Positions 5,302 through 63,643 of a stretch of 64,000 nt of DNA are shown here, in pieces; within the stretch, counting starts at the first letter, position 1; each line of letters begins with the position of its first letter. The notes under the pieces are model-generated. The model was given only the letters and a program-made list of their open reading frames with translations. It had not been told where the DNA came from and did no database searches. This DNA comes from Candidatus Nomurabacteria bacterium (GTDB taxonomy: Bacteria > Patescibacteriota > Minisyncoccia > Phycocordibacterales > UBA9973), in the NCBI GenBank assembly GCA_016699085.1, contig CP064958.1, positions 604,619-668,618 of the forward strand. The letters run 5' to 3'. The position numbers and the translations under genes are program-made.

Positions 5302-5437
5302 AAAAATAATAATTTTTGTTGGCAAATTATGATGGTAGTATGGACTGTGGATAACCCATATTGTGGATTTAGATGTTTTTTTGTGTTAAAATAATAGCAC
5401 CTACGAAAATTTATTAACTATTTCATTTCTCTATATT

Positions 5438-6577
5438 ATGAAAAGTATGCGCAGGTCTTTGGTTTTATTAGTTATACTAGCTGTTATTTTAAGTACGACT
5501 TATTATCCGTATCCTCATCTTGTTGAAGCAGCGTCAATTACTAGTGCAAAAGCAACATTTGGTAGATTAAAAGCAAGTACTGCCAATGAATTTGGTACCA
5601 TCGAATTTGCAACTCCATCAGGTATTCAGACCGGCGGTGCTGATACTATTTCATTTACATTTAGTGCTGATTTTACTCTAGCCGCTGAAGTTGCCAATAA
5701 CTACGATATCGAGCTTGGTGATAGTGCAACTTGTTCGAGTGCTACCTATACAGATGAAGTTGTGGCGCTTTCACCATCTGCGACTGATTGGGGGCTTGAT
5801 ATTACAGGTCAGGTAATCACACTTAGTCCTGAAACGGACCAGGTCCTTACGGCTGGTTTTTGTATGCGACTTGTTTGGGGTACAGCTGCAACAACTGGTG
5901 CGACAGGTTCATCGAGTACGATTACAAACGGTGCAGTGGATGATGATGATACCATTACGATTGGAGGCGTTTTTGGTGATAGTGGAACAATAACTGTGGA
6001 TATTATTGATGATGATCAAGTCAGTGTTACTGCATCAGTTAATCAATCCATTACGTTTGACCTTGATGCAACAGTAGCTGATGGCGAGACAAATACGCCG
6101 TATTCTGTGGCACTTGGAACTATTACAACGACAGACACAAGAGTTTCTGGATCAACGGATACTGTGAACATGATTGTTGCTGAAGCAGACACCAATGCTA
6201 GTGGAGGCTTGGTTGTGACAGTCAGAAATGCTAATGGATCAAATGGTCTAGTTTCAACTTCTGTCCCAGCAGATAATATAAATAGTGCTGACGCTGCAAT
6301 GATTGACGGAACAGAAAATTACGGACTATGTGTTATCACTGCTGGTCTAAGTGGCTTTACAATTGCGACCCCCTATGCGACTAATACCTGTGCTACCAAC
6401 TCAGAAACAAATGACGTTGAAGCTCTAACAACAACAGGTGAGAGTATTCTAAGTACAACTGCCCCAGTAGCAGCGGCCCATGCAGAAATTTCAGTTAATG
6501 CTGCAATATCAGGCACTACAGTTGCTCATTCTGACTATACTGATACCCTTACCTTTATTGCCACGGCCACATTCTAA
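5438..6577 (+). CDS. Secreted protein (379 aa). N-terminal signal peptide; C-terminal ~170-aa domain homologous to the C-terminus of the giant protein, both ending ...YTDTLTFIAT(G/A)TF.
   Basis: ORF with hydrophobic N-terminus MKSMRRSLVLLVILAVIL; C-terminal alignment to ORF 1..5301 read directly from the translations. Confidence 0.75.
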   Translation: MKSMRRSLVLLVILAVILSTTYYPYPHLVEAASITSAKATFGRLKASTANEFGTIEFATPSGIQTGGADTISFTFSADFTLAAEVANNYDIELGDSATCSSATYTDEVVALSPSATDWGLDITGQVITLSPETDQVLTAGFCMRLVWGTAATTGATGSSSTITNGAVDDDDTITIGGVFGDSGTITVDIIDDDQVSVTASVNQSITFDLDATVADGETNTPYSVALGTITTTDTRVSGSTDTVNMIVAEADTNASGGLVVTVRNANGSNGLVSTSVPADNINSADAAMIDGTENYGLCVITAGLSGFTIATPYATNTCATNSETNDVEALTTTGESILSTTAPVAAAHAEISVNAAISGTTVAHSDYTDTLTFIATATF

Positions 6578-6906: not shown

Positions 6907-7043
6907 AAAAAATAATAATTTTTGTTGGCAAATTATGATGGTAGTATGGACTGTGGATAACCCATATTGTGGATTTAGATGTTTTTTTGTGTTAAAATAA
7001 TAGCACCTACGAAAATTTATTAACTATTTCATTTCTCTATATT

Positions 7044-8185
7044 ATGAAAAGTATGCGCAGGTCTTTGGTTTTATTAGTTATACTAGCTGTTATTTTAAGT
7101 ACGACTTATTATCCGTATCCTCATCTTGTTGAAGCAGCGTCAATTACTAGTGCAAAAGCAACATTTGGTAGATTAAAAGCAAGTACTGCCAATGAATTTG
7201 GTACCATCGAATTTGCAACTCCATCAGGTATTCAGACCGGCGGTGCTGATACTATTTCATTTACATTTAGTGCTGATTTTACTCTAGCCGCTGAAGTTGC
7301 CAATAACTACGATATCGAGCTTGGTGATAGTGCAACTTGTTCGAGTGCTACCTATACAGATGAAGTTGTGGCGCTTTCACCATCTGCGACTGATTGGGGG
7401 CTTGATATTACAGGTCAGGTAATCACACTTAGTCCTGAAACGGACCAGGTCCTTACGGCTGGTTTTTTGTATGCGACTTGTTTGGGGTACAGCTGCAACA
7501 ACTGGTGCGACAGGTTCATCGAGTACGATTACAAACGGTGCAGTGGATGATGATGATACCATTACGATTGGAGGCGTTTTTGGTGATAGTGGAACAATAA
7601 CTGTGGATATTATTGATGATGATCAAGTCAGTGTTACTGCATCAGTTAATCAATCCATTACGTTTGACCTTGATGCAACAGTAGCTGATGGCGAGACAAA
7701 TACGCCGTATTCTGTGGCACTTGGAACTATTACAACGACAGACACAAGAGTTTCTGGATCAACGGATACTGTGAACATGATTGTTGCTGAAGCAGACACC
7801 AATGCTAGTGGAGGCTTGGTTGTGACAGTCAGAAATGCTAATGGATCAAATGGTCTAGTTTCAACTTCTGTCCCAGCAGATAATATAAATAGTGCTGACG
7901 CTGCAATGATTGACGGAACAGAAAATTACGGACTATGTGTTATCACTGCTGGTCTAAGTGGCTTTACAATTGCGACCCCCCTATGCGACTAATACCTGTG
8001 CTACCAACTCAGAAACAAATGACGTTGAAGCTCTAACAACAACAGGTGAGAGTATTCTAAGTACAACTGCCCCAGTAGCAGCGGCCCATGCAGAAATTTC
8101 AGTTAATGCTGCAATATCAGGCACTACAGTTGCTCATTCTGACTATACTGATACCCTTACCTTTATTGCCACGGCCACATTCTAA
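7044..8185 (+). pseudogene. Frameshifted duplicate of the 379-aa secreted-protein gene (copy of 5438..6577). Two single-base homopolymer insertions split it into three ORFs.
   Basis: Identical to 5438..6577 except T6 becomes T7 near 7467 and C5 becomes C6 near 7977; the ORF track shows three overlapping fragments 7044..7550, 7471..7992, 7958..8185. Confidence 0.8.
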
Positions 8186-9261: not shown

Positions 9262-10975
9262 GAGTTTTGCATTAATGCTTATAGCACTCACCTTTGGGTG
9301 CTTTTGGCTTTTTCAGTCCGCAGACTTATTGCCAATTACAGTCTTTGCTGATGAAATCATAGTAGAGGAAGATCCGGTAAGTGTTAATGCAGTCGTTGGG
9401 TCAGGTGATGGTGGGGAAGATACAGGCGGTGGTGGAGGTTCAGTTTCGTACTGCCAAGACGCAGCTGCAACAAATTTTGGAGATGTGCTGCCTTGTCAAT
9501 ACTCTCCATTGCCGACGACGTGCGTAAATCCACTTGCAACAAACTATGGAGGTGATTTGCCATGTGTTTTTGCAGTAGAGAATTTATGTCAAGATCCTGA
9601 TGCAGTAAATTATCAAGGTGTATTGCCGTGCTTCTATGCTCCACCACCACCGAGATGCCAAGACGCAGCCGCGACAAATTTTGGAGAATTTTTACCATGT
9701 ACATATCCTGAATCTCTCTTGTGTCAGGATTTATTTGCAGAAAATTATGGTAATCCACTGCCTTGTAGTTATCAAGAAGACTGTACGGGGCCTGATTGTG
9801 ATGTTCCGTCGCCGTGTGTTGGCACAGGCTGCACGAATGATGAGAGTACTACTCCAGGAGGTGGAGGGACTGGAAATACAAATCCAACAGGACCGAGCGA
9901 TTTTGCGACGGCTATTACCAACGTGGGCATAATTACTGATCAGGTTACTGAGAGCCTTTCAAATGCGCTTACTATTATCGGCAATACGATCCAGAATGTG
10001 ACACCAGTTCTGGTGATGCCTGCAGGTAGTGTAGAAACAAAAATAATTACAACAGGAGGTTTGGTTGGGGCGGGCGTGTTCTCGCTTGCTTCATTGCTGT
10101 TTATAAATCCACTGTCATTTTCAGAAATTATATTCTTGCCGCTTCGTCTATGGTCGTTACTTCTCGCTGCACTAGGATTGTGGAAGCGCCGTCCGCCGTG
10201 GGGAACTGTGTATGATTCAATAACCAAGCAACCGCTTGATCCTGCTTATGTTGTTCTTTACGATAAGGATGGCAAGGAAGCTGCAACATCGATTACAGAT
10301 CTGGATGGGCGATACGGCTTTTTGCCCCACGTTGGCACCTATACGATTACAGTTCAAAAAACCAATTATGAATTTCCGTCTAAAAAATTACAAGGACTTA
10401 CTCATGATGAAATCTATCAAGATTTGTATTTTGGTAGCAGTCTAATAATCAAAGAAGAAGGGGAAGTTATTACTAAAAACATCCCTATGGATCCGCTTAA
10501 TTTTGACTGGAACGAATTTGCTAAGCGCCAAAACAAACTCATGAAATTTTATTCAAAGCGCTATGTTATTTGGAAGCAAATAAGTGACACTCTTTTTGTT
10601 ATCGGTCTTGTGCTGGCATTGATTGCATTCCTTGTTGCTCCAAAACCATACAATACGATCATACTACTGTGTTACTTGGTCTTTCTGTTCCTTCGACAAA
10701 CTAATCTATTTCGTCATCCACTCGGTAGTGTGGTTGAAAAGAGTACAAATGAGCCACTGGCATTTGCTGTCGTACATATATTCCATGCCGGGTCTACCAG
10801 TGAGATTATGCGCAAAGTTGCAGATAAAAGTGGGCGTTTCTACTCATTGGTTCCTAACGGTAAATATTATGTAAAAATAGAGAAAAAGAATGCAGATATG
10901 AGTTATAGTCTCGTTCACACTTCCATGCCGTTTATTGTTCGTAAAGGTCATATCGATACAACGTTTAAAATATAG
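9239..10975 (+). CDS. Membrane/surface protein. It has a signal peptide, six ~20-aa Cys-containing repeats (C-x-D-x-x-A-x-N-Y/F-G-x-x-L-P-C-x-Y), a Gly/Thr linker, TM segments, and two C-terminal carboxypeptidase-regulatory-like (CarboxypepD_reg-type) β-sandwich domains.
   Basis: Repeats read in the translation (CQDAAATNFGDVLPCQY, CVNPLATNYGGDLPCVF, CQDPDAVNYQGVLPCFY, CQDAAATNFGEFLPCTY, CQDLFAENYGNPLPCSY); motifs DLDGRYGF...GTYTITV and DKSGRFYS...GKYYVKI. Start chosen at the internal ATG 9239 with a signal-peptide-like N-terminus; the ORF is open from 9179. Confidence 0.65.
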   Translation: MIWARGYKSFALMLIALTFGCFWLFQSADLLPITVFADEIIVEEDPVSVNAVVGSGDGGEDTGGGGGSVSYCQDAAATNFGDVLPCQYSPLPTTCVNPLATNYGGDLPCVFAVENLCQDPDAVNYQGVLPCFYAPPPPRCQDAAATNFGEFLPCTYPESLLCQDLFAENYGNPLPCSYQEDCTGPDCDVPSPCVGTGCTNDESTTPGGGGTGNTNPTGPSDFATAITNVGIITDQVTESLSNALTIIGNTIQNVTPVLVMPAGSVETKIITTGGLVGAGVFSLASLLFINPLSFSEIIFLPLRLWSLLLAALGLWKRRPPWGTVYDSITKQPLDPAYVVLYDKDGKEAATSITDLDGRYGFLPHVGTYTITVQKTNYEFPSKKLQGLTHDEIYQDLYFGSSLIIKEEGEVITKNIPMDPLNFDWNEFAKRQNKLMKFYSKRYVIWKQISDTLFVIGLVLALIAFLVAPKPYNTIILLCYLVFLFLRQTNLFRHPLGSVVEKSTNEPLAFAVVHIFHAGSTSEIMRKVADKSGRFYSLVPNGKYYVKIEKKNADMSYSLVHTSMPFIVRKGHIDTTFKI

Positions 10976-11000
10976 AAAGAAAATTGCTATACTTACTACT

Positions 11001-11531
11001 ATGCAAAGTAACTATCAAATAAAATTTAAGACGTACGTTGCGCGGGTAGTACTTGCCTCGCTCCTAATTATTATTGGTCTAGTTCCGGTTCTGGTACGCG
11101 CAGCTGCTACTCCGTTACCGCCGACTGCTGTAGGAATATTTAATAATATAGACTCTGTACAAACAAAAGTTGAAAATGCAATTCCGCCAAGTGTCTTAGT
11201 AAACCTGCAGAAAATTTTTACCACCATTGATGCATACCGAGTAACCATAGCAAATGTGATAGTTAGTAAACGCACCTCGCTCGAAAAGAAATTACAAGAT
11301 GTCCTCATACAAAAGTTAGAGAAATCAGATACACTTTTTAATTTTGAAACTAATACGAATGATGAAACCTCTGAGTATAATCCACTCGAAATGGGCATTA
11401 TTCAGTTTGAAGTATTCTTGTTGACGTTTATTTCCTATATATTTACGAGTGTAGTTATTTTCTACATTTGCTTGGCACTTTTGTTGTACTGGCTTATGAG
11501 GGCTTTTTATAGGCTTATTCGAGGCCGGTAA
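11001..11531 (+). CDS. Small secreted/membrane protein (signal peptide, C-terminal TM helix).
   Basis: MQSNYQIKFKTYVARVVLASLLIIIGLVPVLVRAAA signal-like N-terminus; C-terminal hydrophobic helix. The ORF is open from 10935 (TTG). Confidence 0.5.
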   Translation: MQSNYQIKFKTYVARVVLASLLIIIGLVPVLVRAAATPLPPTAVGIFNNIDSVQTKVENAIPPSVLVNLQKIFTTIDAYRVTIANVIVSKRTSLEKKLQDVLIQKLEKSDTLFNFETNTNDETSEYNPLEMGIIQFEVFLLTFISYIFTSVVIFYICLALLLYWLMRAFYRLIRGR

Positions 11532-11574
11532 ATAGGTATAGGCAAGCGTGGTGGGGGTGTGATATACTTTTGCC

Positions 11575-11862
11575 ATGGGAAATATTCTCCACAAGGCTCT
11601 GTATACTGTTATTCTGCTTGGTTCATTTGTCTATTTGCCATTTTGGATAAGCATTTGTATCGGTATTTTAGGTATCTTCTTGTTTAGTTTTGAAATTATC
11701 ACAGTCATTATTTTTTTTGTTGCAGACATGGTGTACGCGGATCATTTTCTGTTACATATGTTTGTCGGCAAAATTGCTCTGACATTATTAGCACTTTTTT
11801 TAGTTGGTATTTCACTTTACATCAAGCCAAAAATTCGCAGTTTACAATACAATGAGAATTAA
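11575..11862 (+). CDS. Small integral membrane protein (2-3 TM helices), function unknown.
   Basis: 95-aa ORF, strongly hydrophobic; overlaps the start of the downstream PBP gene by 11 nt. Confidence 0.4.
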   Translation: MGNILHKALYTVILLGSFVYLPFWISICIGILGIFLFSFEIITVIIFFVADMVYADHFLLHMFVGKIALTLLALFLVGISLYIKPKIRSLQYNEN

Positions 11863-13537
11863 ATTTTATAAAAAGAAAGTGCAACTTTACGAAATCGCAC
11901 CTGATGAGATTTTTCTTGACGCGCAAAATATACCTGAATTCGATACACAGCAGTTTGAAGGCAGACTAGAAAAATCAATCAACAAGAAGACTATCTTTGC
12001 GCTTGGTTTTTTTTCATTGCTATTTGGGATCTTATTTGCTGGAAGAATTGGTATTTTAGAAATTAAAAAAGGTCAAGCATATCTTGATCGAAGTGAATAC
12101 AACAGTCTAGCGACAACTCCACTGTTTGCTGATCGTGGCATTGTTCTTGACCGCAACAATAAAGAATTGATTGCAAATGTTTTAACCACTAGCGAAGATA
12201 CGTTCCCGCACCGTACGTACATCGATTTGCCTGGCTTTGGACATTTATTAGGCTACGTAAGCTACCCCGCTAAAGATAGTAATGGTATTTACTGGCAAGA
12301 AAAGATAATTGGCAAGGATGGTGTCGAAAAGCAATTCAATCAAGAACTTGCTGGAACTAATGGTCTTAAAATTCTTGAAACCGATGCGTTTGGTAATGCA
12401 CAGTCAGAAAATATACTTGATAAGCCAAAAAATGGCGATAATCTTGTCCTTGCCGTTGATGCTGATATTCAAAGTGTTTTATATAATGCAATCAAAGATT
12501 TCACTGCTCAAACAAAATTTGAAGGCGGCGCAGGTGTCATTATGAATGTAGAAACTGGAGAAATTATAGCTATGACTAGTTTCCCTGAATATGATTCGAA
12601 TATATTATCTGAAGGTGCTGATAGGGAGATGATCAATTCATATATTCATGATCCAAGAAAAGTCTTTTTAAATAAAGTCGTTTCTGGACTTTATACACCA
12701 GGGTCCATTGTTAAGCCATTTGTTGCTATTGGGGCATTGTCTGAAGGTATTATTTCACCAGAAAAGCAGATACTAAGTACTGGCTCTATTGCAATCCCTA
12801 ACCCGTATGATCCAGATTTAAAAACTGTGTTTAATGACTGGGAAGCTCATGGTTGGGTCGATCTTCGCCACGCATTAGCAGTATCATCAAATGTGTATTT
12901 TTATGAAATTGGGGGTGGATTTCAAGAGCAAGTAGGTCTTGGTATTGATAACTTACATAAATACGAATCTATGTTTGGTATGGGCAAAAAAACAAATATA
13001 AATATGCCAGGTGAAACGGCTGGCAATATTCCTAATCCAGTATGGAAAGAGAAAAATTTTCCTGGTGATCCTTGGCGAATTGGTGATACATACAATACAG
13101 CAATCGGACAATATGGCGTGCAAGTTACGCCGTTACAGATGGTGCGAGGTATCGCAGCAATAGCCAATTACGGTCGCATGATTACTCCCACTGTACTTAA
13201 AACTGATGATGTGCAAAAAGGTAGCCCAATAGATATTGCTAAAGAAAATTTTACGATTATCCACGAAGCAATGCGGCTCACGGTAACTGAAGGCACTGGT
13301 ACAGTTTTAAATACGCCGGCAGTTATGGTTGCAGCAAAAACAGGTACAGCTCAGGTTGGTATTGCAAAACAGTTTATGAACTCGTGGTCAGTTGGTTTTT
13401 TCCCGTATGAACATCCCAAATATGCGTTTGTTGTACTCGTTGAACGTGGCCCAAAATCAAATACAATCGGGGCTTCGCATGTCATGCGAACCGTGCTTGA
13501 TTATATAAGTGCAAATAAGCCATCTATGCTCGAGTAA
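11852..13537 (+). CDS. mrdA: Penicillin-binding protein 2-type D,D-transpeptidase.
   Basis: SxxK (SIVKP), SxN (SSN) and KTG(T) (KTGTAQ) motifs in order; N-terminal TM anchor; a second PBP (ftsI) lies in the dcw cluster, so this one is assigned to the PBP2 role by context. Confidence 0.8.
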   Translation: MRIKFYKKKVQLYEIAPDEIFLDAQNIPEFDTQQFEGRLEKSINKKTIFALGFFSLLFGILFAGRIGILEIKKGQAYLDRSEYNSLATTPLFADRGIVLDRNNKELIANVLTTSEDTFPHRTYIDLPGFGHLLGYVSYPAKDSNGIYWQEKIIGKDGVEKQFNQELAGTNGLKILETDAFGNAQSENILDKPKNGDNLVLAVDADIQSVLYNAIKDFTAQTKFEGGAGVIMNVETGEIIAMTSFPEYDSNILSEGADREMINSYIHDPRKVFLNKVVSGLYTPGSIVKPFVAIGALSEGIISPEKQILSTGSIAIPNPYDPDLKTVFNDWEAHGWVDLRHALAVSSNVYFYEIGGGFQEQVGLGIDNLHKYESMFGMGKKTNINMPGETAGNIPNPVWKEKNFPGDPWRIGDTYNTAIGQYGVQVTPLQMVRGIAAIANYGRMITPTVLKTDDVQKGSPIDIAKENFTIIHEAMRLTVTEGTGTVLNTPAVMVAAKTGTAQVGIAKQFMNSWSVGFFPYEHPKYAFVVLVERGPKSNTIGASHVMRTVLDYISANKPSMLE

Positions 13538-27579: not shown

Positions 27580-28509
27580 TTATTTATTCTTATGCAACCA
27601 CATGTATATATCTTCAAGAGCTTTGACAGCATCTCCTACGGCGATGTTGTTCTGATGGTAAAGGCCATTGGTGACATCGCCGGCTGCCCAAACACCAGAA
27701 ACACTTGTGCGTTGGTTCATAGGATCAACAACAATTTTCTTCTCTTCGTTAAGTGTGACAAATGATGCAACAAAATCTGTATTTGGAATTTGGCCGATTT
27801 CTACGAAAATCCCGCCAGTTGGAAGTGTTGTCTCTTCGTTCGTATTTTTGTCTTTAAATGTAATTGATTCGATAAATTGTGAACCGCTAACTTTCAATAC
27901 ATCAACATTTTTGTAGGCTTTCATGTTTGGATTCGCAAGTACTTTGGCTACCGTCACTTCATCTGCTCGGTAAGTATCGCTACGGTGTAGGAGGGTAACA
28001 CTAGGGCAGTACGCAAGTAATTGTGCTGCAGTTTCAAAGCCAGCATTGCCGCCACCAATCACAACAACATTCTGTCCTGCAAAAAGCGGACCATCGCATG
28101 ATGCACAATACGTAATACCTTTATTCTCATATTCGCTCGCATTCTCTGCCTCAAGCTTCCTTCGTCCAGATCCTGTGACTATGAGGACTGATCTTGATTC
28201 ATACGTTTTGCCATCATCTGTGGTTACATTAAAACCTGAATCAGTCTTGGCAATAGTTGTCACTTTGACGCCTTCAACTAGATCGAGCATGTCAGCTTTA
28301 TACGCAAGGACGTGATTTTTGAGAGTTTTAGCTAGATCGTTACCACTTATTTTTTCTGTTCCAATCCAGTTCTCGATACCTTCTGAGACCGTTGATTGTC
28401 CACCGAATTCGTAGGTGAGCATAAGCGTCTTCAAACGCTTACGAGAAGCATATACAGCTGCTCCCGCGCCTGCTGGCCCGCCTCCTAGTATAAGTAAATC
28501 GTATTTCAT
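27580..28509 (-). CDS. trxB: Thioredoxin-disulfide reductase.
   Basis: FAD motif LILGGGPAGAGAAVYA, redox-active CASCDG, NAD(P) motif VVVIGGGNAG. Confidence 0.85.
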   Translation of the reverse strand: MKYDLLILGGGPAGAGAAVYASRKRLKTLMLTYEFGGQSTVSEGIENWIGTEKISGNDLAKTLKNHVLAYKADMLDLVEGVKVTTIAKTDSGFNVTTDDGKTYESRSVLIVTGSGRRKLEAENASEYENKGITYCASCDGPLFAGQNVVVIGGGNAGFETAAQLLAYCPSVTLLHRSDTYRADEVTVAKVLANPNMKAYKNVDVLKVSGSQFIESITFKDKNTNEETTLPTGGIFVEIGQIPNTDFVASFVTLNEEKKIVVDPMNQRTSVSGVWAAGDVTNGLYHQNNIAVGDAVKALEDIYMWLHKNK

Positions 28510-33695: not shown

Positions 33696-35216
33696 CTAGA
33701 TGCTTTTTAGAATTTTTATGTCTGCGCCGATTGATCGCAACCTCTCGTCGATGCGCTCGTAGCCTCGTTTAATTGCGTAGACATTCCTCAGTATTGAAGT
33801 GCCTTTGGCACCAAGCATGGCAACAAGGATCATCATTGAAGGTCTAAGCGCTGGTGGACAAATAATTTGGGCAGGTACGAGTTTGGTGGGTCCTTGGACG
33901 AGAACTCGGTGGGGATCAGCAAGCGTGATTGATGCTCCAAGTCGATTGAGCTCAGTAAAATAAATAGCGCGATTTTCCCACATCCAGTCATGGATAAGTG
34001 TTGTTCCTTCAACTTGAGTTGCAATAGGTACAAAAAAAGGTAAGTTATCCGAATTAATGCCAGGATAGGGAAGTGGATGAATTTTGTCTTGGGGGGCAAC
34101 CATAGATGATGAGTAAACGGTTATATCAACAAGTTTTGTGCGATTGTTGAAGGATAGGTATTCTTTTCCATAGGAAGTTTTGAGACCCATCTTTTCTAAT
34201 TTCAAAAGCTCAAGTCGCAAGAAATCAATTGGGCAGCGAGTAATCGTAAGTTTTGATTTAGTAACAATCGCAGCAGCTATAAACATCATTGACTCAATTG
34301 GGTCTTCGCTGTTTGTGTATTCAATTGTTTCTTTGATTTCACTTTTGCCATGGATGACAAGCGTTGTGGTGCCAATGCCTTCGATACTCACTCCTAATTT
34401 TTCAAGAAAAAAGCAGACTTCTTGCACTTGGTAATTTGGTGGAGCAAAACGAAGTGTTGTTGTGCCTGGAATAAGTGCAGAAGCTATGAGTACATTTTCG
34501 GCAGCCGTATCACTTGCTTCATACAGGGTAATATCAGCTGAGTGCAGTTTGCTTGCTTTAATTTCATATACAGATTCTTTTGTCGTTATTGCCACTCCTA
34601 ATGATTCCAATGCGTACCGGTGCGCCGCTATTGTTCGTTCGCCCATTTTGCATCCGCCAGCATGAGGAATAACAAATCGCTTTTTGTTGTGTACAAGTGC
34701 TCCAATGAGCATAATAATTGATCGTATGCGAGCAGCTGAAACATTATTGAGTGATTCAGTTCTGAATACTTTCGGTGGGGTAATGCGAATGCTATGTTCT
34801 GCTATCCATTCAATTTTAACCCCGATACTCTCAAAGACTTCAATCATCCGGTATAGTTCTTCTATTTTAGGAATACCATGAAATACTGTTGGTGCTTTAT
34901 TTATCAGCGCAGCACAAAAAAGTCCCATAGTTCCATTTTTAGAAGTATTAGTTTCAATAGTCCCGTGTAATTTTTTGCCACCAGTAATTTCGAAGTCATC
35001 AGTGAGATCTGCGATACGTACAACATTTTGTTTCAATACACCACTAATTTTTGAGAGTTGCTTCGTGGTGAAATTCTGCTTGCCCTTTTCCATGCGAGCA
35101 ACAGCGCTTTGGGAGGTCTGCAGTGCACGAGCAAAGTGCTTCTGGGTCATATTGCTGGCTTCACGACGAGTTTTTATAAATGTTGCAATTTGTTTTTGAG
35201 CAGACTCTTTTTTCAT
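33696..35216 (-). CDS. murA: UDP-N-acetylglucosamine 1-carboxyvinyltransferase MurA with an in-frame N-terminal XRE-type HTH domain (~80 aa).
   Basis: N-terminus MTQKHFARALQTSQSAVARMEKGKQNFTTKQLSKISGVL (HTH_3-like), then a full MurA/EPSP-synthase fold including active-site Cys in HAGGCKMGERTIAAH; no stop or Met between the two parts. Confidence 0.85.
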   Translation of the reverse strand: MKKESAQKQIATFIKTRREASNMTQKHFARALQTSQSAVARMEKGKQNFTTKQLSKISGVLKQNVVRIADLTDDFEITGGKKLHGTIETNTSKNGTMGLFCAALINKAPTVFHGIPKIEELYRMIEVFESIGVKIEWIAEHSIRITPPKVFRTESLNNVSAARIRSIIMLIGALVHNKKRFVIPHAGGCKMGERTIAAHRYALESLGVAITTKESVYEIKASKLHSADITLYEASDTAAENVLIASALIPGTTTLRFAPPNYQVQEVCFFLEKLGVSIEGIGTTTLVIHGKSEIKETIEYTNSEDPIESMMFIAAAIVTKSKLTITRCPIDFLRLELLKLEKMGLKTSYGKEYLSFNNRTKLVDITVYSSSMVAPQDKIHPLPYPGINSDNLPFFVPIATQVEGTTLIHDWMWENRAIYFTELNRLGASITLADPHRVLVQGPTKLVPAQIICPPALRPSMMILVAMLGAKGTSILRNVYAIKRGYERIDERLRSIGADIKILKSI

Positions 35217-35224
35217 GTTTGTAC

Positions 35225-35242
35225 TATATCACATGTGATATA
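35225..35242. promoter_or_regulatory. Perfect 18-bp palindrome TATATCACA|TGTGATATA centred in the 34-bp divergent murA/murB intergenic region. It overlaps extended -10-like elements for both genes (TGaTATACT on +, TGaTATAGT on -).
   Basis: Read directly; the whole intergenic spacer is essentially this palindrome. Confidence 0.6.
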
Positions 35243-35250
35243 CTTTTTAT

Positions 35251-36273
35251 ATGAAAATTATTGACCATATTTCGCTTGAGAAGCTATCTACATTTAGTAT
35301 TGGTGGTACTGCGAGGCATGGCATTGTCATTTCAGACAAAAATGATATTCCTAAAGCGTTTGCATTTGCCGAGGAACAAAAGCTTAGAGTGCATGTTACA
35401 GGTGGTGGATCTAATACCATATTTGATGATAGTAAAGAGTTGCCACTTTGTATACTTAAGATAGAAATTGATGGCAAGGATGTACACAATCAAGGAGATA
35501 AAATTCATATTTCATTTGGTGCTGGGGTATCTTGGGATGAGGCAGTGCAATATACACTCGATCATAATGCAAGCGGCATCGAAGCATTATCAATGATACC
35601 AGGCACTGTTGGTGCTGCCCCGGTACAAAATATTGGTGCGTATGGTCAAGAAGTTTCGCAGACGATTTATGCTGTACATGCATATGACAGCATTGGGAAA
35701 AAATTTGTAACATTATCGAATCGCGATTGCGAGTTTTCTTATAGACAGAGTATTTTTAATACAGTGGCAAAAAATCGCTATGTTATTCATTCGGTTACGT
35801 TTGCTCTTTCAATGGAATTGCCAGCAGTACCTGTGTATGCGGGAGTATCAGAATTAGTCCAGGCAAAAACGGAAGGAAGTTTGTTGGAAAAAATTAGAGA
35901 ATCAGTCATGGAGCTCCGTAAAAATAAACTACCAGATCCTTCACATATTCCAAATTGCGGCTCATTTTTTAAGAATCCGATAGTCGCAAATAATCTTATC
36001 GAGACTCTGCAAGCTGCTTATAAAACTATGCCAGTCTATAAAGTAACTGATAAGCAAAGTAAATTATCAGCCGGGTGGCTGATCGAGCAGTTAGGTTATA
36101 AAGGTACAACCATTGGCCCAGTTGGCATATATGAAAAAAATGCTTTAGTACTTTACAACCGAGGTGGTGCAACACTTATTGATCTAGAACAAGCCATACG
36201 AGAAATTACTACCAAGGTGAGTAATCGTTTTGCTGTTACACTTATTTGTGAGCCTCTTATTCTTAAAATATAA
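35251..36273 (+). CDS. murB: UDP-N-acetylenolpyruvoylglucosamine reductase MurB.
   Basis: FAD-binding N-terminus (TFSIGGTARH...VTGGGSN) and MurB C-terminal domain. Confidence 0.9.
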   Translation: MKIIDHISLEKLSTFSIGGTARHGIVISDKNDIPKAFAFAEEQKLRVHVTGGGSNTIFDDSKELPLCILKIEIDGKDVHNQGDKIHISFGAGVSWDEAVQYTLDHNASGIEALSMIPGTVGAAPVQNIGAYGQEVSQTIYAVHAYDSIGKKFVTLSNRDCEFSYRQSIFNTVAKNRYVIHSVTFALSMELPAVPVYAGVSELVQAKTEGSLLEKIRESVMELRKNKLPDPSHIPNCGSFFKNPIVANNLIETLQAAYKTMPVYKVTDKQSKLSAGWLIEQLGYKGTTIGPVGIYEKNALVLYNRGGATLIDLEQAIREITTKVSNRFAVTLICEPLILKI

Positions 36274-36279
36274 ACCAAT

Positions 36280-37725
36280 ATGGAATTAGAAAAAATATTT
36301 ATTGATATCCCAATAGAAAAAATTCATGGCAGTTTTGATTGCAGTGTTTCTCATATGACGCTCGATTCTCGCGATGTGCGTGGTGATTCAATTTTCGTAG
36401 CAATCAAAGGGGACAAGAGCGATGGTCATGTATTTATTGACTTGGCGATTCAAAGTGGAGCATTAATGATTATTTGCTCAGTGATGCCAGAGAAAATCCA
36501 TGAAAATATAACCTACGTTTGCATATCAAATATTGAAAGGTTTATTGGAGTTATTGCAAGTCGGTTTTATGGACATCCATCAGAAACACTAAAAGTTATT
36601 GGTGTTACAGGAACTAATGGCAAGACGACTATTGCAACACTTCTATATAAAGCAGTGGGACATTTAGGGAAAAAAGCCGGCCTTATTTCGACAATCGAAA
36701 ATTATGTCTGTGAGAAAGTATTGCAAACAAGCAACACAACACCTGATGCCATAACAATACAGCGATTATTCCGTGAGATGATCAATGCAGGATGCGAGTA
36801 TTGTTTTATGGAAGTCAGTTCTCATGCGCTTGTGCTTGGACGTGTCAATGGCATAAAATTTCATGGTGGAATATTTACAAATCTAACACTTGATCATTTG
36901 GATTTTCATAAAACTCTTTCTAATTACTTAGAAGCCAAAAAACTATTTTTTGATATGTTGCCACAGGGTGCATTTGCACTTGTAAATAGTGATGATGAAG
37001 CAACTGCAAAATTAACTAGAGATACGAAAGCAACTATTTCGACCTATGCACTTTTAAAGGACGCTTTTTATAAAGGTGAAATTAAAGAATTAGTATTTCC
37101 TAAAATGGCATTTGAGATTAATGGACTCCAGGGTAATTTTAAGCTAGTTGGGGATTACAATGCGTATAATATTTTAGCTATATATGGCACATTACAAATA
37201 TTGGGCTTTGAGCCAAACAAAAGCATACAAATAATTGAACGACTTGATGGAGCTAGAGGTAGGTTTGAAATATTAGTATCAAAACTTGGCGCTATAGCAA
37301 TTATCGATTATGCGCATACTCCAGACGGTTTGCAAAATGTTTTAAAAACTATAAGTAATATAAATCAAAACAAGCATAGCATTATAACTGTATTTGGATG
37401 TGGAGGGGACAGGGATAGAACCAAACGGCCACTCATGACTGAGATTGCACTACGCTACAGTAATAAAGTTATAGTAACAACAGATAATTCTCGTAGTGAA
37501 AATCCAGAAAACATAATTGCTGATATGGTTGCGACTCTTGCAGAAAAGACAAATATTGAAATAATTCTAGATCGTAGTTTGGCAATTGCAACTGCGGTGA
37601 AATCATTACAATCGGGAGATATTGTGCTTATTGCAGGTAAGGGTCATGAAATGTATCAAGATATCAAGGGTCTCAAAACTCATTTTAGTGACAGAGAAGA
37701 AGTAGAAAAAATTTTTACATTTTAG
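36280..37725 (+). CDS. murE: UDP-N-acetylmuramoyl-L-alanyl-D-glutamate--2,6-diaminopimelate (or L-Lys) ligase MurE.
   Basis: Mur ligase P-loop GVTGTNGKTT, central and C-terminal Mur ligase domains; DNSRSE in place of the DNPR motif, so substrate preference is uncertain. Confidence 0.85.
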   Translation: MELEKIFIDIPIEKIHGSFDCSVSHMTLDSRDVRGDSIFVAIKGDKSDGHVFIDLAIQSGALMIICSVMPEKIHENITYVCISNIERFIGVIASRFYGHPSETLKVIGVTGTNGKTTIATLLYKAVGHLGKKAGLISTIENYVCEKVLQTSNTTPDAITIQRLFREMINAGCEYCFMEVSSHALVLGRVNGIKFHGGIFTNLTLDHLDFHKTLSNYLEAKKLFFDMLPQGAFALVNSDDEATAKLTRDTKATISTYALLKDAFYKGEIKELVFPKMAFEINGLQGNFKLVGDYNAYNILAIYGTLQILGFEPNKSIQIIERLDGARGRFEILVSKLGAIAIIDYAHTPDGLQNVLKTISNINQNKHSIITVFGCGGDRDRTKRPLMTEIALRYSNKVIVTTDNSRSENPENIIADMVATLAEKTNIEIILDRSLAIATAVKSLQSGDIVLIAGKGHEMYQDIKGLKTHFSDREEVEKIFTF

Positions 37726-39124
37726 GAAACTTTTTTTCAAAAAATATAGGCAAGGTTTGGGGTAAGTTATCAAGGCCGCCTGAAGACATTAGGACAACAA
37801 TATCATCTGCGCCAACTTTTTCATTAAGAAATTGTGTTGCTTCGGTATTCGTACGTACTCCGATGGCCTGAGGTGTATGGATATGTACACGATCAAGAAT
37901 TTCCTCAAATGAGCTTTGTTCATGGGATGCTTTGCCATGGGTTGGCGGTTCAAAAATAACTACATTGTCAGAATCTCGGAAAAGGTCATCGTACCAAGGC
38001 AGTGCAGCCTTATTTCTCCAACTAAATGTATGTGGCTCAAAAACGGTTATTATTTTTTTATTTGGAAAATGGAGTTTTAGTGCGTCAAAAACACTTCTCG
38101 CTTTTGCGTAGGATGAGCCAAAGCCATCATAAATATGCACAGTTGTTTTTTGTGACTTTAAATTAATTCTTCCCTCTAAGCCTTCGAAAGATGCAAGTGC
38201 GAATTTAATTTCATTTGGTGTAAGTAAATTTTTTTCTAACAATACAGCGCTGACACCGATGCAATTTTCGATATTGTGTTTCCCAAGTAGTTTAGTTTCT
38301 AAAGATATAATTTTTTCCTCATCGTGATAAAGATCAAAGCTTGTTATATGGTCAAAAATTAGATTTTTTGCGTACCACCCATTTTGGTTAGCCAGACTGT
38401 ATGTACTTTTGTTTGATTTGGTCTCTCTTAGTAACTGTGGAATATTGGGATGTTCGATTGCTGCGACAATGAGTCCATCACTTGGTAGGTTTTGTAAAAG
38501 TTTCTTGTATGGTTTTAAATAACTTTCTTCTGTTGGAAATATATTGAGATGGTCATGTTCGCCTGAGGTGAGTAATAGAGTGCTTGGGGTATAGTAAAGA
38601 AATTTTGAAGTAAGATCCCAATTAGCGGATGGGTATTCATCGCCTTCAATAATAAAAAGTTCACCATCACCCAAGTGAGCTGTCTCTTCAAAGCCTAAGG
38701 GCACGGCACCAATAAAATAGCTAGGGTCTTTGCCATTTTCTTTGAGACACCAGGCAAGCAACGCGGTACATGTAGATTTGCCGTAACTTCCTGCCACAAC
38801 GATAGTCTCCTTATCTTTTGCCAGCTCTCTAATAATTTCTGGAAACGATGCAATCCGAATGCCAGAATCAAATGCTGCTTTCACTTCTTCATTTTTCTCT
38901 GGTACCAATTCTGCATGTTTGCCAATAATAATGACATCAACGTCACGTGGAATATTTTCTTTTGCATAGTGTGGTGAAAAAGAAATATGCTGATTTACTA
39001 GATAACTAAATACTGGTTCGTATGTGCCACTATCTGAGCCGGTAATTTCCCAGCCTCTCTGTTTTAGCATGCTCGCAACACCACTCATGCCTTTGCCGCA
39101 TATACCAATAAAGTGTGCTTTCAT
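37715..39124 (-). CDS. murC: Mur ligase of the MurC/Mpl type (UDP-N-acetylmuramate--L-alanine ligase or murein-peptide ligase).
   Basis: N-terminus HFIGICGKGMSGVASML (MurC/Mpl Rossmann-like), P-loop GSYGKST. Confidence 0.8.
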   Translation of the reverse strand: MKAHFIGICGKGMSGVASMLKQRGWEITGSDSGTYEPVFSYLVNQHISFSPHYAKENIPRDVDVIIIGKHAELVPEKNEEVKAAFDSGIRIASFPEIIRELAKDKETIVVAGSYGKSTCTALLAWCLKENGKDPSYFIGAVPLGFEETAHLGDGELFIIEGDEYPSANWDLTSKFLYYTPSTLLLTSGEHDHLNIFPTEESYLKPYKKLLQNLPSDGLIVAAIEHPNIPQLLRETKSNKSTYSLANQNGWYAKNLIFDHITSFDLYHDEEKIISLETKLLGKHNIENCIGVSAVLLEKNLLTPNEIKFALASFEGLEGRINLKSQKTTVHIYDGFGSSYAKARSVFDALKLHFPNKKIITVFEPHTFSWRNKAALPWYDDLFRDSDNVVIFEPPTHGKASHEQSSFEEILDRVHIHTPQAIGVRTNTEATQFLNEKVGADDIVVLMSSGGLDNLPQTLPIFFEKKFPKM

Positions 39125-39141
39125 AACAAAACTATATCACA

Positions 39142-40431
39142 TTAGCCTATGAGTACTTCTTTCATTGTAAGTAGGTATTCACCAAACAAATCTGAAGATT
39201 GAGATTTATTCTCTGATCCCAATAGGATATCGATCGGGTGCAAATTTGGCTGCTTTGGAAACATGCCTGTTGTCAAGTTATCTGTTGGCACTTTTTCTGG
39301 TTTGTATTTAGTAAATAATGCAAGCTTTTGCCACTCCTCTTTGTATTTTGAAAGGTATTCTACTTGTCGAAAACTGCCGAGACATTTGAAATGATTAAGT
39401 AATGAGAGAATAGTAAAAACAAGCAGTGTGCCAGGGCATAGATCTCGCGATTCGAAAGCTTCAAGCAGGTTTTCTTTAGTTAATTTTATTACGGTTGATT
39501 TGCTTTGTATAAAACCTTTGTAGAGAATAAATGTCTCTAGTTTGGAATGCTTACTATTTGATTTACCGTAAAATAGACAAACCTTTTCTCCAAATGCTCT
39601 TATGATCTGCTCTTGGTGCTCCTCCTTTAGAAGTATTTTTGTTATTGGATGATTATCGTTTTCTAGTACCTTTTTTATATACGACATGATTACTTCATTA
39701 ATATCTACATAAACAGACGTAGTCTGTGGGAATAGACGTTTGGCAATTTTCGAATGGTTTCCCAAAACCCATGCTGAAAAAGAAGTTTCCTCATCTGGTA
39801 GTGCAAATACTGATTTTGCTGTATCGGTAAAGTATTGTGCGTAGTGGTGTGCTTTTGATGGGATAGTACTTCGATATACTAATGCGTCTTGCATAGAAGA
39901 AGGTATAAAAGATATTTTCCTGACTTCCGATACGGTTTGCGCAGATCGTGTCTCCGCTGAGATTATTTGCTCACGTTCTAAATCTTTGGGAAGCTTTACT
40001 AATGACTCAAGTTTAGTAGTAGCTCCATAATGAATGCAGCCAGGGCGAGTGAGATTCGAAAACGGTATACCAGAGAACATTGCAACAATATAGTAATCTT
40101 TTTTACCAAGTGATGAATTCGAAATCCAATCAATGCAAAACATTCGTGATGTATGAGAAATGCCTAAATGTGGTGCGGTTTGTATGACGCGTGATCGAGT
40201 AATATAGTCTCGTATGTTGGAACTTTCCTCAGTCGGATACCCTAATCTGGTGAGTTCTTCTTGGAATGCTTCATCTAGTGCTTGCTCAAGAGGTAAAATT
40301 GGTTTGTAGCTATAGAGTTCACGGCTGTAGTTTTTGATGGATAGATGCGCATGTGATTGGATAGCTTGAGCGAGGTAAGGTTTTTCTTGAGCTTCTAATA
40401 TTTCCACGAGGCTTTCAATCTCTTTTTCCAT
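39142..40431 (-). CDS. Hypothetical cytoplasmic protein (429 aa) embedded in the mur gene cluster.
   Basis: Long ORF with no recognisable motif; same strand as, and 17 nt downstream of, the murC/mpl-like gene. Confidence 0.55.
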   Translation of the reverse strand: MEKEIESLVEILEAQEKPYLAQAIQSHAHLSIKNYSRELYSYKPILPLEQALDEAFQEELTRLGYPTEESSNIRDYITRSRVIQTAPHLGISHTSRMFCIDWISNSSLGKKDYYIVAMFSGIPFSNLTRPGCIHYGATTKLESLVKLPKDLEREQIISAETRSAQTVSEVRKISFIPSSMQDALVYRSTIPSKAHHYAQYFTDTAKSVFALPDEETSFSAWVLGNHSKIAKRLFPQTTSVYVDINEVIMSYIKKVLENDNHPITKILLKEEHQEQIIRAFGEKVCLFYGKSNSKHSKLETFILYKGFIQSKSTVIKLTKENLLEAFESRDLCPGTLLVFTILSLLNHFKCLGSFRQVEYLSKYKEEWQKLALFTKYKPEKVPTDNLTTGMFPKQPNLHPIDILLGSENKSQSSDLFGEYLLTMKEVLIG

Positions 40432-40472: not shown

Positions 40473-41735
40473 ATGACAGATGTAGAACATATATATAAGC
40501 TCTATAAAGTGTGTCCTAAAGTTTTTACTGATTCACGAAAAGTTGAAGTAGGAGGCATTTTCTTTGCTCTCTCTGGTGAACAATTTGATGGTAACGCCTT
40601 TGCAGAAAAAGCACTTGAGCTTGGTGCCCGATCTGCAGTCATTGATAATGAAATATATAAAAAAGATGAGCGATATATCGTTGTACCCAATGTACTGCAA
40701 TCATTGCAAGAGTTGGCAAGAAAACATCGTGAGCAATTTACGATTCCAATAATTGGCATAACAGGCAGTAATGGAAAAACGACGACAAAAGAATTGTGCA
40801 GAGAAGTGTTAAGTCAAAAAGGGTATGTGCTCGCGACGGAAGGTAATTTGAATAATCATATTGGCGTACCACTGACGATCCTTACACTCACTCATGAACA
40901 TCAATACGCAATTATTGAAATGGGGGATAATAAACGCGGAGATATTAAAGAATTATGTCAAATTGCGAAACCAACTATTGGCATTATTACAAATGTAGGT
41001 AAAGATCATTTGGGTGGCTATAAAAACCAAAAGGAAAATGTCGCAACTAAGCTTGAACTCTTTGACTATCTCAAAGAGCAAAATGGTGTCGTGCTCGTCA
41101 ACAGTGAAGATGCAGACTTGATGAATGCAGCAGAACATATTGAAAAGAGTATATATACACCGAGTAACTATGAAGTAAAACTAGAAAATGCATATCTTAC
41201 GTACAAACAAAAAGACGCTTGGATACCAACAAAACTGTATGGATTATTTAATATTGCAAATATAGCTTGTGCTAAAGCGCTCGGAGATCATTTTGCTACA
41301 AATAATAAAGAGATGGATAAAGCAATAAGTAATTATGAACCGCTCCTCATGCGTTCGCAGATTGTAGAGACGAAGACAAATACGATTATTCTGGATGCTT
41401 ACAATGCGAACCCATCATCAATGGTACTTGCGCTTGATTCATTCAATATACTTGAAAGCAAAAATAAAAAAGTCGCCATTTTGGGTGATATGTTGGAACT
41501 TGGAATTGAAAGTGAGGAAGAGCATAGAAAGATTGTCGACTTGGTTGAACAGTATGGAATCGAAGCTTATTTGTATGGTCCAGAATTCTATAAAAGTAAA
41601 AATGACAAAGCACTTTTCTTTCCAAATTTTGAAACGTTATTTGACCATATTACAAATATGAAATTTTCGAATACAACAATACTTTTGAAGGCATCACGTG
41701 GAATGAAAGTAGAGAGATTGGTGCCAGTACTGTAA
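40473..41735 (+). CDS. murF: UDP-N-acetylmuramoyl-tripeptide--D-alanyl-D-alanine ligase MurF.
   Basis: P-loop GITGSNGKTTTKEL and Mur ligase architecture. Confidence 0.9.
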   Translation: MTDVEHIYKLYKVCPKVFTDSRKVEVGGIFFALSGEQFDGNAFAEKALELGARSAVIDNEIYKKDERYIVVPNVLQSLQELARKHREQFTIPIIGITGSNGKTTTKELCREVLSQKGYVLATEGNLNNHIGVPLTILTLTHEHQYAIIEMGDNKRGDIKELCQIAKPTIGIITNVGKDHLGGYKNQKENVATKLELFDYLKEQNGVVLVNSEDADLMNAAEHIEKSIYTPSNYEVKLENAYLTYKQKDAWIPTKLYGLFNIANIACAKALGDHFATNNKEMDKAISNYEPLLMRSQIVETKTNTIILDAYNANPSSMVLALDSFNILESKNKKVAILGDMLELGIESEEEHRKIVDLVEQYGIEAYLYGPEFYKSKNDKALFFPNFETLFDHITNMKFSNTTILLKASRGMKVERLVPVL

Positions 41736-48904: not shown

Positions 48905-49393
48905 ATGGAAAATCGAGGATTTGTGAATATACTGCTTATTATTTTTGGGTTTATTTTAGTAGGTATTATAGTAGGATTTTTTGCTTCGAGACATTCAGTT
49001 TCACCGATAGTATTCCCAAACATAACTGGCAAAGAAACCGCCTCACCATTTACGACATTTACTACTGCAAAATGCGGTCTTGTTATAACATCCCCAGAGC
49101 CTAATGCAACAGTAACAATACCCATTGTTGTAACTGGCTATGTAAATGGCTGTGGATGGAATGAAGATGATCAAAATGCCGGGACAGTAGTGCTCTTGAA
49201 TGACCAAGGTCAGGTTATTTCAGGTACATACGTGCTATTTGTAGGTCAGCGCCCACTTTTTTCTTCTGCAAATTTTACAGCAACGATTTATTCTTCTGGC
49301 AAAAAAACTACAAATATGAGTCTGCTTTTCAAAAGCAATGATATTCCGTCAAAGCAGCAAATCTTCCAGCTTCCTCTTATATTAAATAAATAA
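48905..49393 (+). CDS. Hypothetical membrane-anchored/secreted protein (162 aa).
   Basis: N-terminal TM/signal anchor ILLIIFGFILVGIIVGFFA. Confidence 0.5.
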   Translation: MENRGFVNILLIIFGFILVGIIVGFFASRHSVSPIVFPNITGKETASPFTTFTTAKCGLVITSPEPNATVTIPIVVTGYVNGCGWNEDDQNAGTVVLLNDQGQVISGTYVLFVGQRPLFSSANFTATIYSSGKKTTNMSLLFKSNDIPSKQQIFQLPLILNK

Positions 49394-63289: not shown

Positions 63290-63643
63290 ATGCGACACCA
63301 CAATAACGTCAGAAAATTTGGAAGAACAACAGGAGCAAGAAGTGCACTTATGAAGTCCCTCGCACTCTCGCTTATTACTCATGGTAGAATCACGACAACA
63401 CTTGCTAAGGCCAAAGAGCTTCGCCCATACGTTGAGAAGATTGTTACCAAAGGTAAAACAGCCAATACTGGTAGCAAGCGCCTCGTTATTGCGAAGCTTG
63501 TCAATCGCAAAACAGAAGTCAAAAAGCTTTTTGACGAGATTGTGCCAAAGTATAAAACTAGAAATGGTGGGTATACTCGTATTCTGAAATTGCCGCCACG
63601 CCTAAGCGATAGCAGTAAGATGGCTATTATTGAATTTGTGTAA
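63290..63643 (+). CDS. rplQ: 50S ribosomal protein L17.
   Basis: MRHHNNVRKFGRTTGARSALMKSLALSLITHGRITTT... Confidence 0.95.
   Translation: MRHHNNVRKFGRTTGARSALMKSLALSLITHGRITTTLAKAKELRPYVEKIVTKGKTANTGSKRLVIAKLVNRKTEVKKLFDEIVPKYKTRNGGYTRILKLPPRLSDSSKMAIIEFV

Follow-up and report, generated by a model that had tools for sequence, protein, structure and literature searches.

In a 64,000-nucleotide (nt) stretch of the genome of a Candidatus Nomurabacteria bacterium (contig CP064958.1, positions 604,619 to 668,618; hereafter the window), the gene for MurA was found to encode an additional N-terminal helix-turn-helix (HTH) domain of the XRE type, and a perfect 18-bp palindrome was located between this gene and the divergent murB. 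MurA catalyzes the committed step of peptidoglycan synthesis, is the target of fosfomycin and is a known control point. The comparison of related loci suggests that the palindrome is an operator through which the fused HTH represses murA, and in this genome also murB and murE, so that HTH-MurA would be a bifunctional enzyme and repressor. We put the probability of this reading at about 0.75. It was best supported because the fusion is widespread, the palindrome is conserved upstream of it, and the same palindrome stands beside related HTH genes. Autoregulation of murA and murB by MurA through a dyad operator had been proposed in a first-pass annotation of this DNA, and the comparative evidence favored it over the other readings considered; the computational checks that the annotation had suggested all gave supporting results. 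The features on which the argument turns were as follows.

33696..35216, minus strand: HTH-MurA fusion gene (506 residues plus stop; HTH_3, EPSP_synthase and PRK09369 above cut-off)
35001..35216, minus strand: XRE/Cro-C1 HTH domain and linker, residues 1-72 (Pfam HTH_3 and helices of the AlphaFold2 model)
33699..35000, minus strand: MurA catalytic part, residues 73-506 (end-to-end alignment of residues 72-504 with solved MurA structures)
35225..35242, no strand: perfect 18-bp palindrome TATATCACATGTGATATA, with the halves TATATCACA and TGTGATATA, putative operator of HTH-MurA (sequence and family motif)
35251..36273, plus strand: murB (UDP-N-acetylmuramate dehydrogenase), divergent from murA (NCBIfam PRK00046, 337.7 bits, cut-off 277)

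The HTH-MurA fusion protein

The open reading frame (ORF) of the fusion began with an ATG that was preceded by an in-frame stop four codons upstream. Residues 14-62 matched Pfam HTH_3 (PF01381) with an E-value of 1.7e-9 (38 bits, cut-off 23), and the HTH of the protein was also recognized by HTH_31 (28.2 bits, cut-off 27). Residues 78-493 matched EPSP_synthase (PF00275) with an E-value of 2.9e-44 (151.9 bits, cut-off 22.8), and the MurA subfamily model PRK09369 of NCBIfam scored 325.6 bits (cut-off 297). The first-pass annotation had described an in-frame N-terminal HTH on a complete MurA that retained the active-site Cys; this description was borne out, and the HTH peptide quoted there, MTQKHFARALQTSQSAVARMEKGKQNFTTKQLSKISGVL, was present in the 506-residue ORF. 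In the AlphaFold2 model (mean predicted local distance difference test score 87.5), the N-terminal part formed a four-helix HTH with helices at residues 6-20, 25-32, 36-43, and 51-61, and its recognition helix had the sequence TSQSAVARME. The linker between the two parts, about 10 residues long, was predicted with low confidence (residues 62-72), and the MurA fold after it was predicted with high confidence. The repeating β-α pattern over residues 74-503, taken together with the whole-length alignment to MurA, corresponded to the two-domain inside-out α/β barrel. The closest solved proteins to the HTH were MBF1, HipB, HigA, and PezA. The matches of the protein in the PDB to solved MurAs all began at residues 72-81, and none of the solved MurAs carried an N-terminal extension.

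The active-site Cys was C189 in the motif GGCKMGERT, which aligned with the Cys of the solved MurA structures. In the alignment to 5UJS, residues K93, C189, R194, D390, R416, and R458 occupied the catalytic Lys, Cys, Arg, and Asp positions, which we take to be K22, C115, R120, D305, R371, and R397 of E. coli MurA, and all six were invariant in 25 homologues. Enzymatic activity was predicted from this intact set of catalytic residues. A predicted active enzyme and a DNA-binding domain would accordingly share one polypeptide, as in the bifunctional enzyme-repressors BirA, PutA, and NadR. It is highly improbable that the protein is a regulator only, with a MurA-like part that has become an inactive ligand sensor, like the shikimate-kinase-like domain of BzdR, while another MurA does the chemistry. 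The MurA part was indeed divergent, with an identity of about 30-35% to solved MurAs and a score of 312.3 bits for the equivalog model TIGR01072, below the cut-off of 392.7. Sensor domains derived from enzymes and fused to XRE HTHs also exist, and the BzdR family model PRK08154 gave a weak match to the HTH. However, the catalytic residues that were checked were all invariant, and the MurA domain was 58-74% identical across the clade, which was above the conservation of the HTH. The gene was located in a mur/fts cluster with murB, murE, a murC-type ligase gene, and murF in a lineage of small genomes, and no second murA was seen in the window or in any of the related loci.

Distribution of the fusion

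Both Pfam domains were present in all of the 120 best homologues (63-98% identity, 490-521 residues), and homologues of equal length and architecture were found down to 58% identity. When one genome per GTDB species was scanned, relatives of HTH-MurA were encoded in at least 508 species genomes, apparently all from Patescibacteria/Paceibacteria. The best 80 of these at least 508 genomes were labelled Jorgensen-, Zambryski-, Nomura-, Kaiser-, and Uhrbacteria, Paceibacteria, Parcubacteria, and Minisyncoccia; the few automated labels of Saccharibacteria and Gammaproteobacteria among the 80 appeared unreliable. In 25 homologues that were 64-74% identical to the query, the sequence T-S-Q-S-A-x-A-R-x-E-x-G-x-Q-N, which spans helix 2 of the HTH motif with the turn that follows it, was invariant (T34, S35, Q36, S37, A38, A40, R41, and E43). 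The junction between the two parts, ..D-D-F-x-I-x-G-G, was conserved across the homologues. This distribution points to an ancient fusion. Public sources named these proteins plainly as MurA.

There is practically no chance that the fusion was created in assembly or gene calling by joining a small HTH gene to murA. The same continuous frame appeared in independent assemblies from many projects and in at least 508 species, the junction was conserved, and no evidence in support of an artefact was found; the explanation was thus ruled out, as was the assembly frameshift that the first-pass annotation had named as a risk.

A search with the HTH alone against 1.84 billion representatives did not find other enzymes fused to the same HTH clade. 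The nine close matches that were inspected were truncated fragments of HTH-MurA, and the remainder were proteins with multiple HTH repeats. By sequence comparison, the HTH is homologous to those of type II antitoxins of the HigA/HipB type, but HTH-MurA is not itself an antitoxin. No toxin gene was found beside HTH-murA in the window or at 80 related loci, where the neighbors were murB, priA, tRNAs, and others.

Conservation of the palindrome upstream of HTH-murA

The start codons of murA (35214-35216, minus strand) and murB (35251-35253, plus strand) were separated by 34 nt, and the palindrome lay 8 nt from each of them. The spacer length and the perfect palindrome had been given correctly in the first-pass annotation, but its statement that the palindrome fills the spacer almost entirely did not hold, since 18 of the 34 bases were covered. 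Palindrome length alone was rejected as an argument for significance. Of 200 first-order Markov simulations of the window, 71 (35%) contained a perfect palindrome of at least 18 bp, and a second perfect 18-bp palindrome, GTCAAAAAGCTTTTTGAC, was located at 63518-63535 inside the coding sequence of rplQ (L17-like), where it is probably due to chance. Since palindromes of this length are common by chance in the window, the case must rest on position and on comparison across genomes.

A position weight matrix (PWM) was trained on 54 exact matches from the 90 nt upstream of orthologues and was applied to loci of about 9.5 kb. The motif TATATCAyATrTGATATA was present in most of the 90-nt upstream stretches. 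For 73 of the 75 loci with enough upstream DNA, a site upstream of HTH-murA, no more than 260 nt away, was the best match in the whole of the approximately 9.5 kb. About 20 of these 73 sites were variants outside the training set, and the second-best matches scored far lower. At one of the two exceptions, L061, the site was 595 nt upstream, before a 192-residue gene that immediately preceded murA on the same strand. The other, L076 from Kaiserbacteria (1150-1600), was the sole locus without a site upstream of HTH-murA and also the sole locus with a degenerate recognition helix, TSVSVVNKME; the joint decay of the helix and loss of the palindrome was counted in favor of their pairing. In the 64-kb window, the palindrome scored 26.5 with the same matrix and the next best match scored -0.7. 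No further full operator sites were found in the window, either with the PWM or with a 14-mer allowing up to three mismatches, for which the hits were at chance level.

The upstream neighbor was a divergent murB in about 39 of the 73 loci, and the distance from the palindrome to the ATG was then often exactly 8 nt. In 19 of the 73 loci, where the upstream neighbor was a co-directional ORF or a tRNA with its end 18-190 nt away, the palindrome was complete as well, so that divergent promoters do not account for its symmetry. The conservation that the first-pass annotation had proposed to check between murA and murB was thus found without the murB neighbor as well. The gap from the palindrome to the ATG of murA, which was determined for 66 loci, was 8-15 nt in about 40 and 22-57 nt in about 12, and it exceeded 100 nt in 6. 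A Mur ligase gene was immediately preceded by an imperfect copy of the palindrome (PWM scores 16.7-25.5) in L012 (at about 2605), L021 (about 1909), and L067 (about 2061). The ligase of L012 was MurC according to NCBIfam (403.5 bits, cut-off 335.1), and that of L021 had Mur-ligase Pfam domains, which suggests that murC falls within the regulon in some lineages. The predicted operator was thus found in promoters of genes of the same pathway, namely murA and murB, with the weaker sites before murC in three loci.

The sequence GAGATA occurred in at least one half-site in all nine loci with the helix SQSS[IV]PRME, compared with 7 of about 65 loci with other helices. This co-variation of helix and operator is suggestive only, and it is confounded by shared ancestry because the nine loci are close relatives.

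Related HTH genes beside the same palindrome

When metagenome contigs were scanned for exact matches to the 18-mer alone, at least 120 loci were obtained. Among the matches listed, HTH-murA adjoined the palindrome in 24 of 120, including distant versions of the protein (45-48% identity, 51-54% G+C). In 21 further loci, an ORF no more than 500 nt away matched the profile of the MurA HTH. One type accounted for 11 of the 21, a protein of about 100 residues with a C-terminal HTH and the helix T-K/T-Q-S-N/D-I/V-A-R-M/I-E, and in 9 of the 11 the HTH started at a constant distance of 460-490 nt from the palindrome. Two of them were inspected, L133 (1535-2219) and L167 (2043-2728), and both contained a toxin gene followed by an XRE antitoxin gene with the palindrome at the start of the toxin gene. 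The toxin of L167 matched Pfam Gp49. The HTH of its antitoxin was 42% identical to the MurA HTH (E-value 7e-13), and the two shared the helix T.QS..ARME.G.QNFT. Antitoxin-type loci with the same 18-bp palindrome were also seen at L106, L107, L169, L170, L180, L189, and L192, apparently likewise operons of a Gp49/HigB-like toxin and an XRE antitoxin; across all of these loci, L133 and L167 included, the HTHs were 42-47% identical to that of MurA. In L123 (5865-6176), the palindrome overlapped the start of a gene for a free-standing HTH protein of about 100 residues with the identical helix TSQSAVARME.

The HTH clade and the palindrome therefore occurred together in three gene contexts (HTH-murA, toxin-antitoxin operons, and free-standing HTH genes), the pattern expected of a cognate pair of domain and operator. 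These comparisons suggest joint recruitment of the HTH domain and its site, with an autoregulator of the antitoxin type as their source. Cross-talk could arise if a toxin-antitoxin operon and HTH-MurA share one genome.

Promoter structure

Extended -10-like elements had been reported for both genes in the first-pass annotation, and both were found, within or across the ends of the palindrome.

35223..35231, minus strand: extended -10-like element TGATATAGT for murA, ending 6 nt before the ATG
35236..35244, plus strand: extended -10-like element TGATATACT for murB, ending 6 nt before the ATG

A Shine-Dalgarno sequence, at most as a weak match, was found at 7 of the 48 larger ORFs of the window and was lacking at murA. 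At 17 of the 48, the start codon was preceded by a TAnnnT hexamer at a distance of 5-9 nt, in most cases exactly 6 nt, compared with 11% of random positions. Nine of the 17 also had an upstream TG, which gave the geometry of TGnTAnnnT, 6 nt, and ATG; examples among the 48 ORFs surveyed were 27580-28509, 37715-39124, 39142-40431, 40473-41735, and 48905-49393. This survey suggests that leaderless transcription from extended -10 promoters is the norm in this organism. A scan with the σ70 consensus called no promoter in the spacer, where no -35 hexamer was found at 16-18 nt, and it was uninformative overall (31 sites, compared with 29.1 in shuffled sequences).

The palindrome might be read as a compact bidirectional promoter only, formed by back-to-back extended -10 elements of leaderless murA and murB, with the HTH of MurA serving some other function. 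Each half-site TGATATA, with two more bases, completed a TAnnnT hexamer 6 nt before the ATG, the same geometry was present at other genes of the window, and about half of the related loci had murB as the divergent neighbor, in many cases at a distance of exactly 8 nt. However, the full palindrome, with a fixed 4-nt center and fixed spacing, was kept in the 19 loci in which divergent transcription is not possible. The other promoters of the window had the right-hand element only, without a mirror half; the palindrome lay 22-580 nt from the ATG of murA in several loci, and it recurred with related HTH genes in unrelated operons. A promoter without an operator was judged very unlikely, and as a sufficient account of the palindrome it was rejected on the co-directional loci and on the toxin-antitoxin and free-standing HTH contexts.

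A model for autoregulation by HTH-MurA

In the proposed model, two HTH domains would bind the two 9-bp half-sites of the operator, TATATCAyA and TrTGATATA. In the window, the leaderless promoters of murA and of the divergent murB-murE would have their extended -10 elements, TGATATAGT and TGATATACT, respectively, in the two half-sites. The occupied operator would occlude the -10 region and the start site and so block RNA polymerase, on both sides in the divergent arrangement. The resulting negative feedback would keep the level of the first committed enzyme of peptidoglycan precursor synthesis steady, and that of the second step as well where murB is divergent. From the comparisons above we infer DNA binding, dimeric binding, and repression rather than activation.

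Several observations weigh against this model, in addition to the shared ancestry of the loci with helix SQSS[IV]PRME and the low TIGR01072 score given above. MurA enzymes are generally monomeric, which leaves the pairing of two HTH domains unexplained. The half-site TGATATA resembles an ordinary extended -10 element (TGnTAnnnT), and part of its conservation may be conservation of the promoter. No related HTH was detectable at about 75 of the 120 palindrome loci among the matches listed from the metagenomes; a rough estimate from base composition indicates that so large a collection could yield this many matches by chance. Finally, L032 (3959-5317, Parcubacteria bacterium C7867-006) encoded a 443-residue MurA without an HTH (MKKTEKIQKNTDDF...) and yet had a perfect palindrome about 9 nt before its GTG start codon. 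Its MurA had apparently lost about 65 residues in frame; this loss may be recent or due to an error of assembly, or else another protein may use the site.

The last of these possibilities leads to a more general alternative, in which the operator is bound by a free-standing XRE regulator or by a toxin-antitoxin antitoxin of the same HTH clade, and the fused HTH serves, for example, in protein-protein contact. Such a role has a precedent in RodZ, the XRE-like HTH of which binds MreB. L032 fits this alternative in keeping the palindrome next to a MurA without an HTH, and so do the free-standing HTHs and antitoxins with closely related helices that adjoin the palindrome in metagenomes. On the other side, no free-standing relative of the HTH was found within 4 kb in either direction at any of the 80 loci, the recognition helix of the fused HTH was invariant in the 25 aligned homologues of a fusion that occurs in hundreds of species, and the lineage with the decayed fused helix also lacked the palindrome. 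Binding by another protein was considered unlikely, and binding by the fused HTH of MurA itself was preferred.

The occupancy of the MurA domain by UDP-N-acetylglucosamine (UDP-GlcNAc), phosphoenolpyruvate (PEP), or UDP-N-acetylmuramate (UDP-MurNAc) might modulate the binding of DNA, which is speculative. An extension of the model along these lines, possible but doubtful, is a ligand-responsive trigger enzyme, in which the open or closed state of MurA would set dimerization or the accessibility of the HTH, and the flux of the pathway would be read at the murA/murB promoter. This state would differ between the free enzyme and the enzyme with bound UDP-GlcNAc and PEP, or it would be locked by UDP-MurNAc, a product further down the pathway. 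Such a one-protein feedback loop would take the place of dedicated regulators in the genome-reduced Patescibacteria, and because the protein would share its operator with a resident toxin-antitoxin module, cell-wall synthesis and growth arrest could be linked by cross-talk.

Neighboring genes and other features of the window

The genes next to murA and murB and one isolated half-site were located as follows.

36280..37725, plus strand: murE (NCBIfam PRK00139.1-4, 568 bits), 6 nt after murB
37715..39124, minus strand: MurC/Mpl-type ligase gene of the mur cluster
39133..39141, minus strand: isolated half-site TGTGATATA, 8 nt upstream of the MurC/Mpl-type ligase gene

The sequence upstream of murE contained no separate -10-like element, and because of this and the 6-nt gap, murE is probably co-transcribed with murB. 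Beyond murE were the MurC/Mpl-type ligase gene, a 429-residue ORF, and murF; downstream of murA were priA, ftsA, and ftsZ. Since priA has its own TGnTAnnnT element, murA may be monocistronic in the window. The half-site 9-mer TGTGATATA occurred in 4 copies in the window, compared with 0.88 expected. The copy at 39133-39141 had the same spacing to the ligase gene as those at murA and murB; it is possibly a weak secondary site or simply the promoter of the ligase gene. Another copy was located at 11558-11566 on the plus strand, in the gap between the ORFs 10935-11531 and 11804-13537.

The 429-residue ORF (39142-40431, minus strand), between the MurC-type ligase gene and murF, was preceded by the promoter-like sequence TGCTATACT, which was followed by 6 nt and the ATG. 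It had no Pfam match at an E-value of 0.001 or below and no NCBIfam match at 1e-10 or below. An identical 25-nt sequence, ATTAACTATTTCATTTCTCTATATT, occurred at 5413-5437 and 7019-7043, before the start codons of the ORFs 5438-6577 and 7044-7550; either an upstream region is repeated here or a local duplication has taken place. A very long ORF (1-5301, plus strand, at least 1766 residues) ran off the left end of the window.

Significance and comparison with known systems

Patescibacteria (the candidate phyla radiation, CPR) are mostly uncultured and have few recognizable regulators, and their regulation is largely unknown. If the model is true, a class-level lineage (at least 508 species genomes) controls the synthesis of cell-wall precursors by one polypeptide with the roles of enzyme and repressor. 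HTH-MurA and its site would then be a rare pair of regulator and operator in CPR bacteria, with an operator that is nearly invariant across the lineage, and a new example of an enzyme-repressor fusion in an essential anabolic pathway. The likely evolutionary route would be the capture of an antitoxin-type HTH along with its operator, and the 18-bp sequence would serve as a DNA signature marking the murA promoters of the lineage in metagenomes. The full-text literature searches found no description of an HTH-MurA fusion or of a MurA with its own DNA-binding domain, in agreement with the remark of the first-pass annotation that the arrangement was undescribed for MurA.

Canonical MurAs, such as those of E. 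coli and Enterobacter cloacae (PDB 1UAE, 1EJC), share with HTH-MurA the complete two-domain EPSP-synthase fold and the catalytic residues, but the solved ones lack the N-terminal extension. In Firmicutes, the level of MurA is controlled by proteolysis through ClpCP.

BirA, the biotin protein ligase of E. coli, has an N-terminal HTH within the enzyme and binds as a dimer to a palindromic operator between the divergent bioA and bioBFCD, both of which are blocked. It resembles HTH-MurA in combining an enzyme with an N-terminal HTH and in having a palindromic operator between divergent promoters of the pathway, which on the side of HTH-MurA we infer. BirA differs in that its HTH is a winged helix and not of the XRE type, its enzyme fold is another one, and its own gene is not regulated. 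Its dimerization and binding need biotinyl-AMP, whereas a dependence of HTH-MurA on ligand is speculative. PutA, the flavoenzyme and repressor of proline utilization, autoregulates from the intergenic region of the divergent putA and putP. It is like the proposed HTH-MurA in being a bifunctional enzyme-repressor with an operator in a divergent intergenic region, but its DNA-binding domain is a ribbon-helix-helix, its switch is driven by redox state and membrane, and its pathway is catabolic and not that of the cell wall.

BzdR consists of an XRE HTH linked to a shikimate-kinase-like domain that senses benzoyl-CoA. It shares with HTH-MurA the order of XRE-type HTH, linker, and domain of enzyme fold; however, its enzyme-like domain is a sensor and not an enzyme of the pathway, whereas the catalytic residues of HTH-MurA are intact. 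Autoregulation through a palindrome in the promoter is the norm for type II antitoxins of the XRE family. For XRE regulators in general, control of the own gene through an upstream palindrome is common (PMC12565409). The operons of Gp49 toxins and XRE antitoxins found here (L133, L167, and others) have the same HTH family as HTH-MurA and the same 18-bp palindrome at the start of the operon, but the antitoxins are small, stand-alone, and paired with a toxin, whereas in HTH-MurA the HTH is carried by a housekeeping enzyme. In mode of action, the closest analogues of HTH-MurA are BirA and PutA; by descent, its HTH belongs with the antitoxins of the HigA/HipB type.

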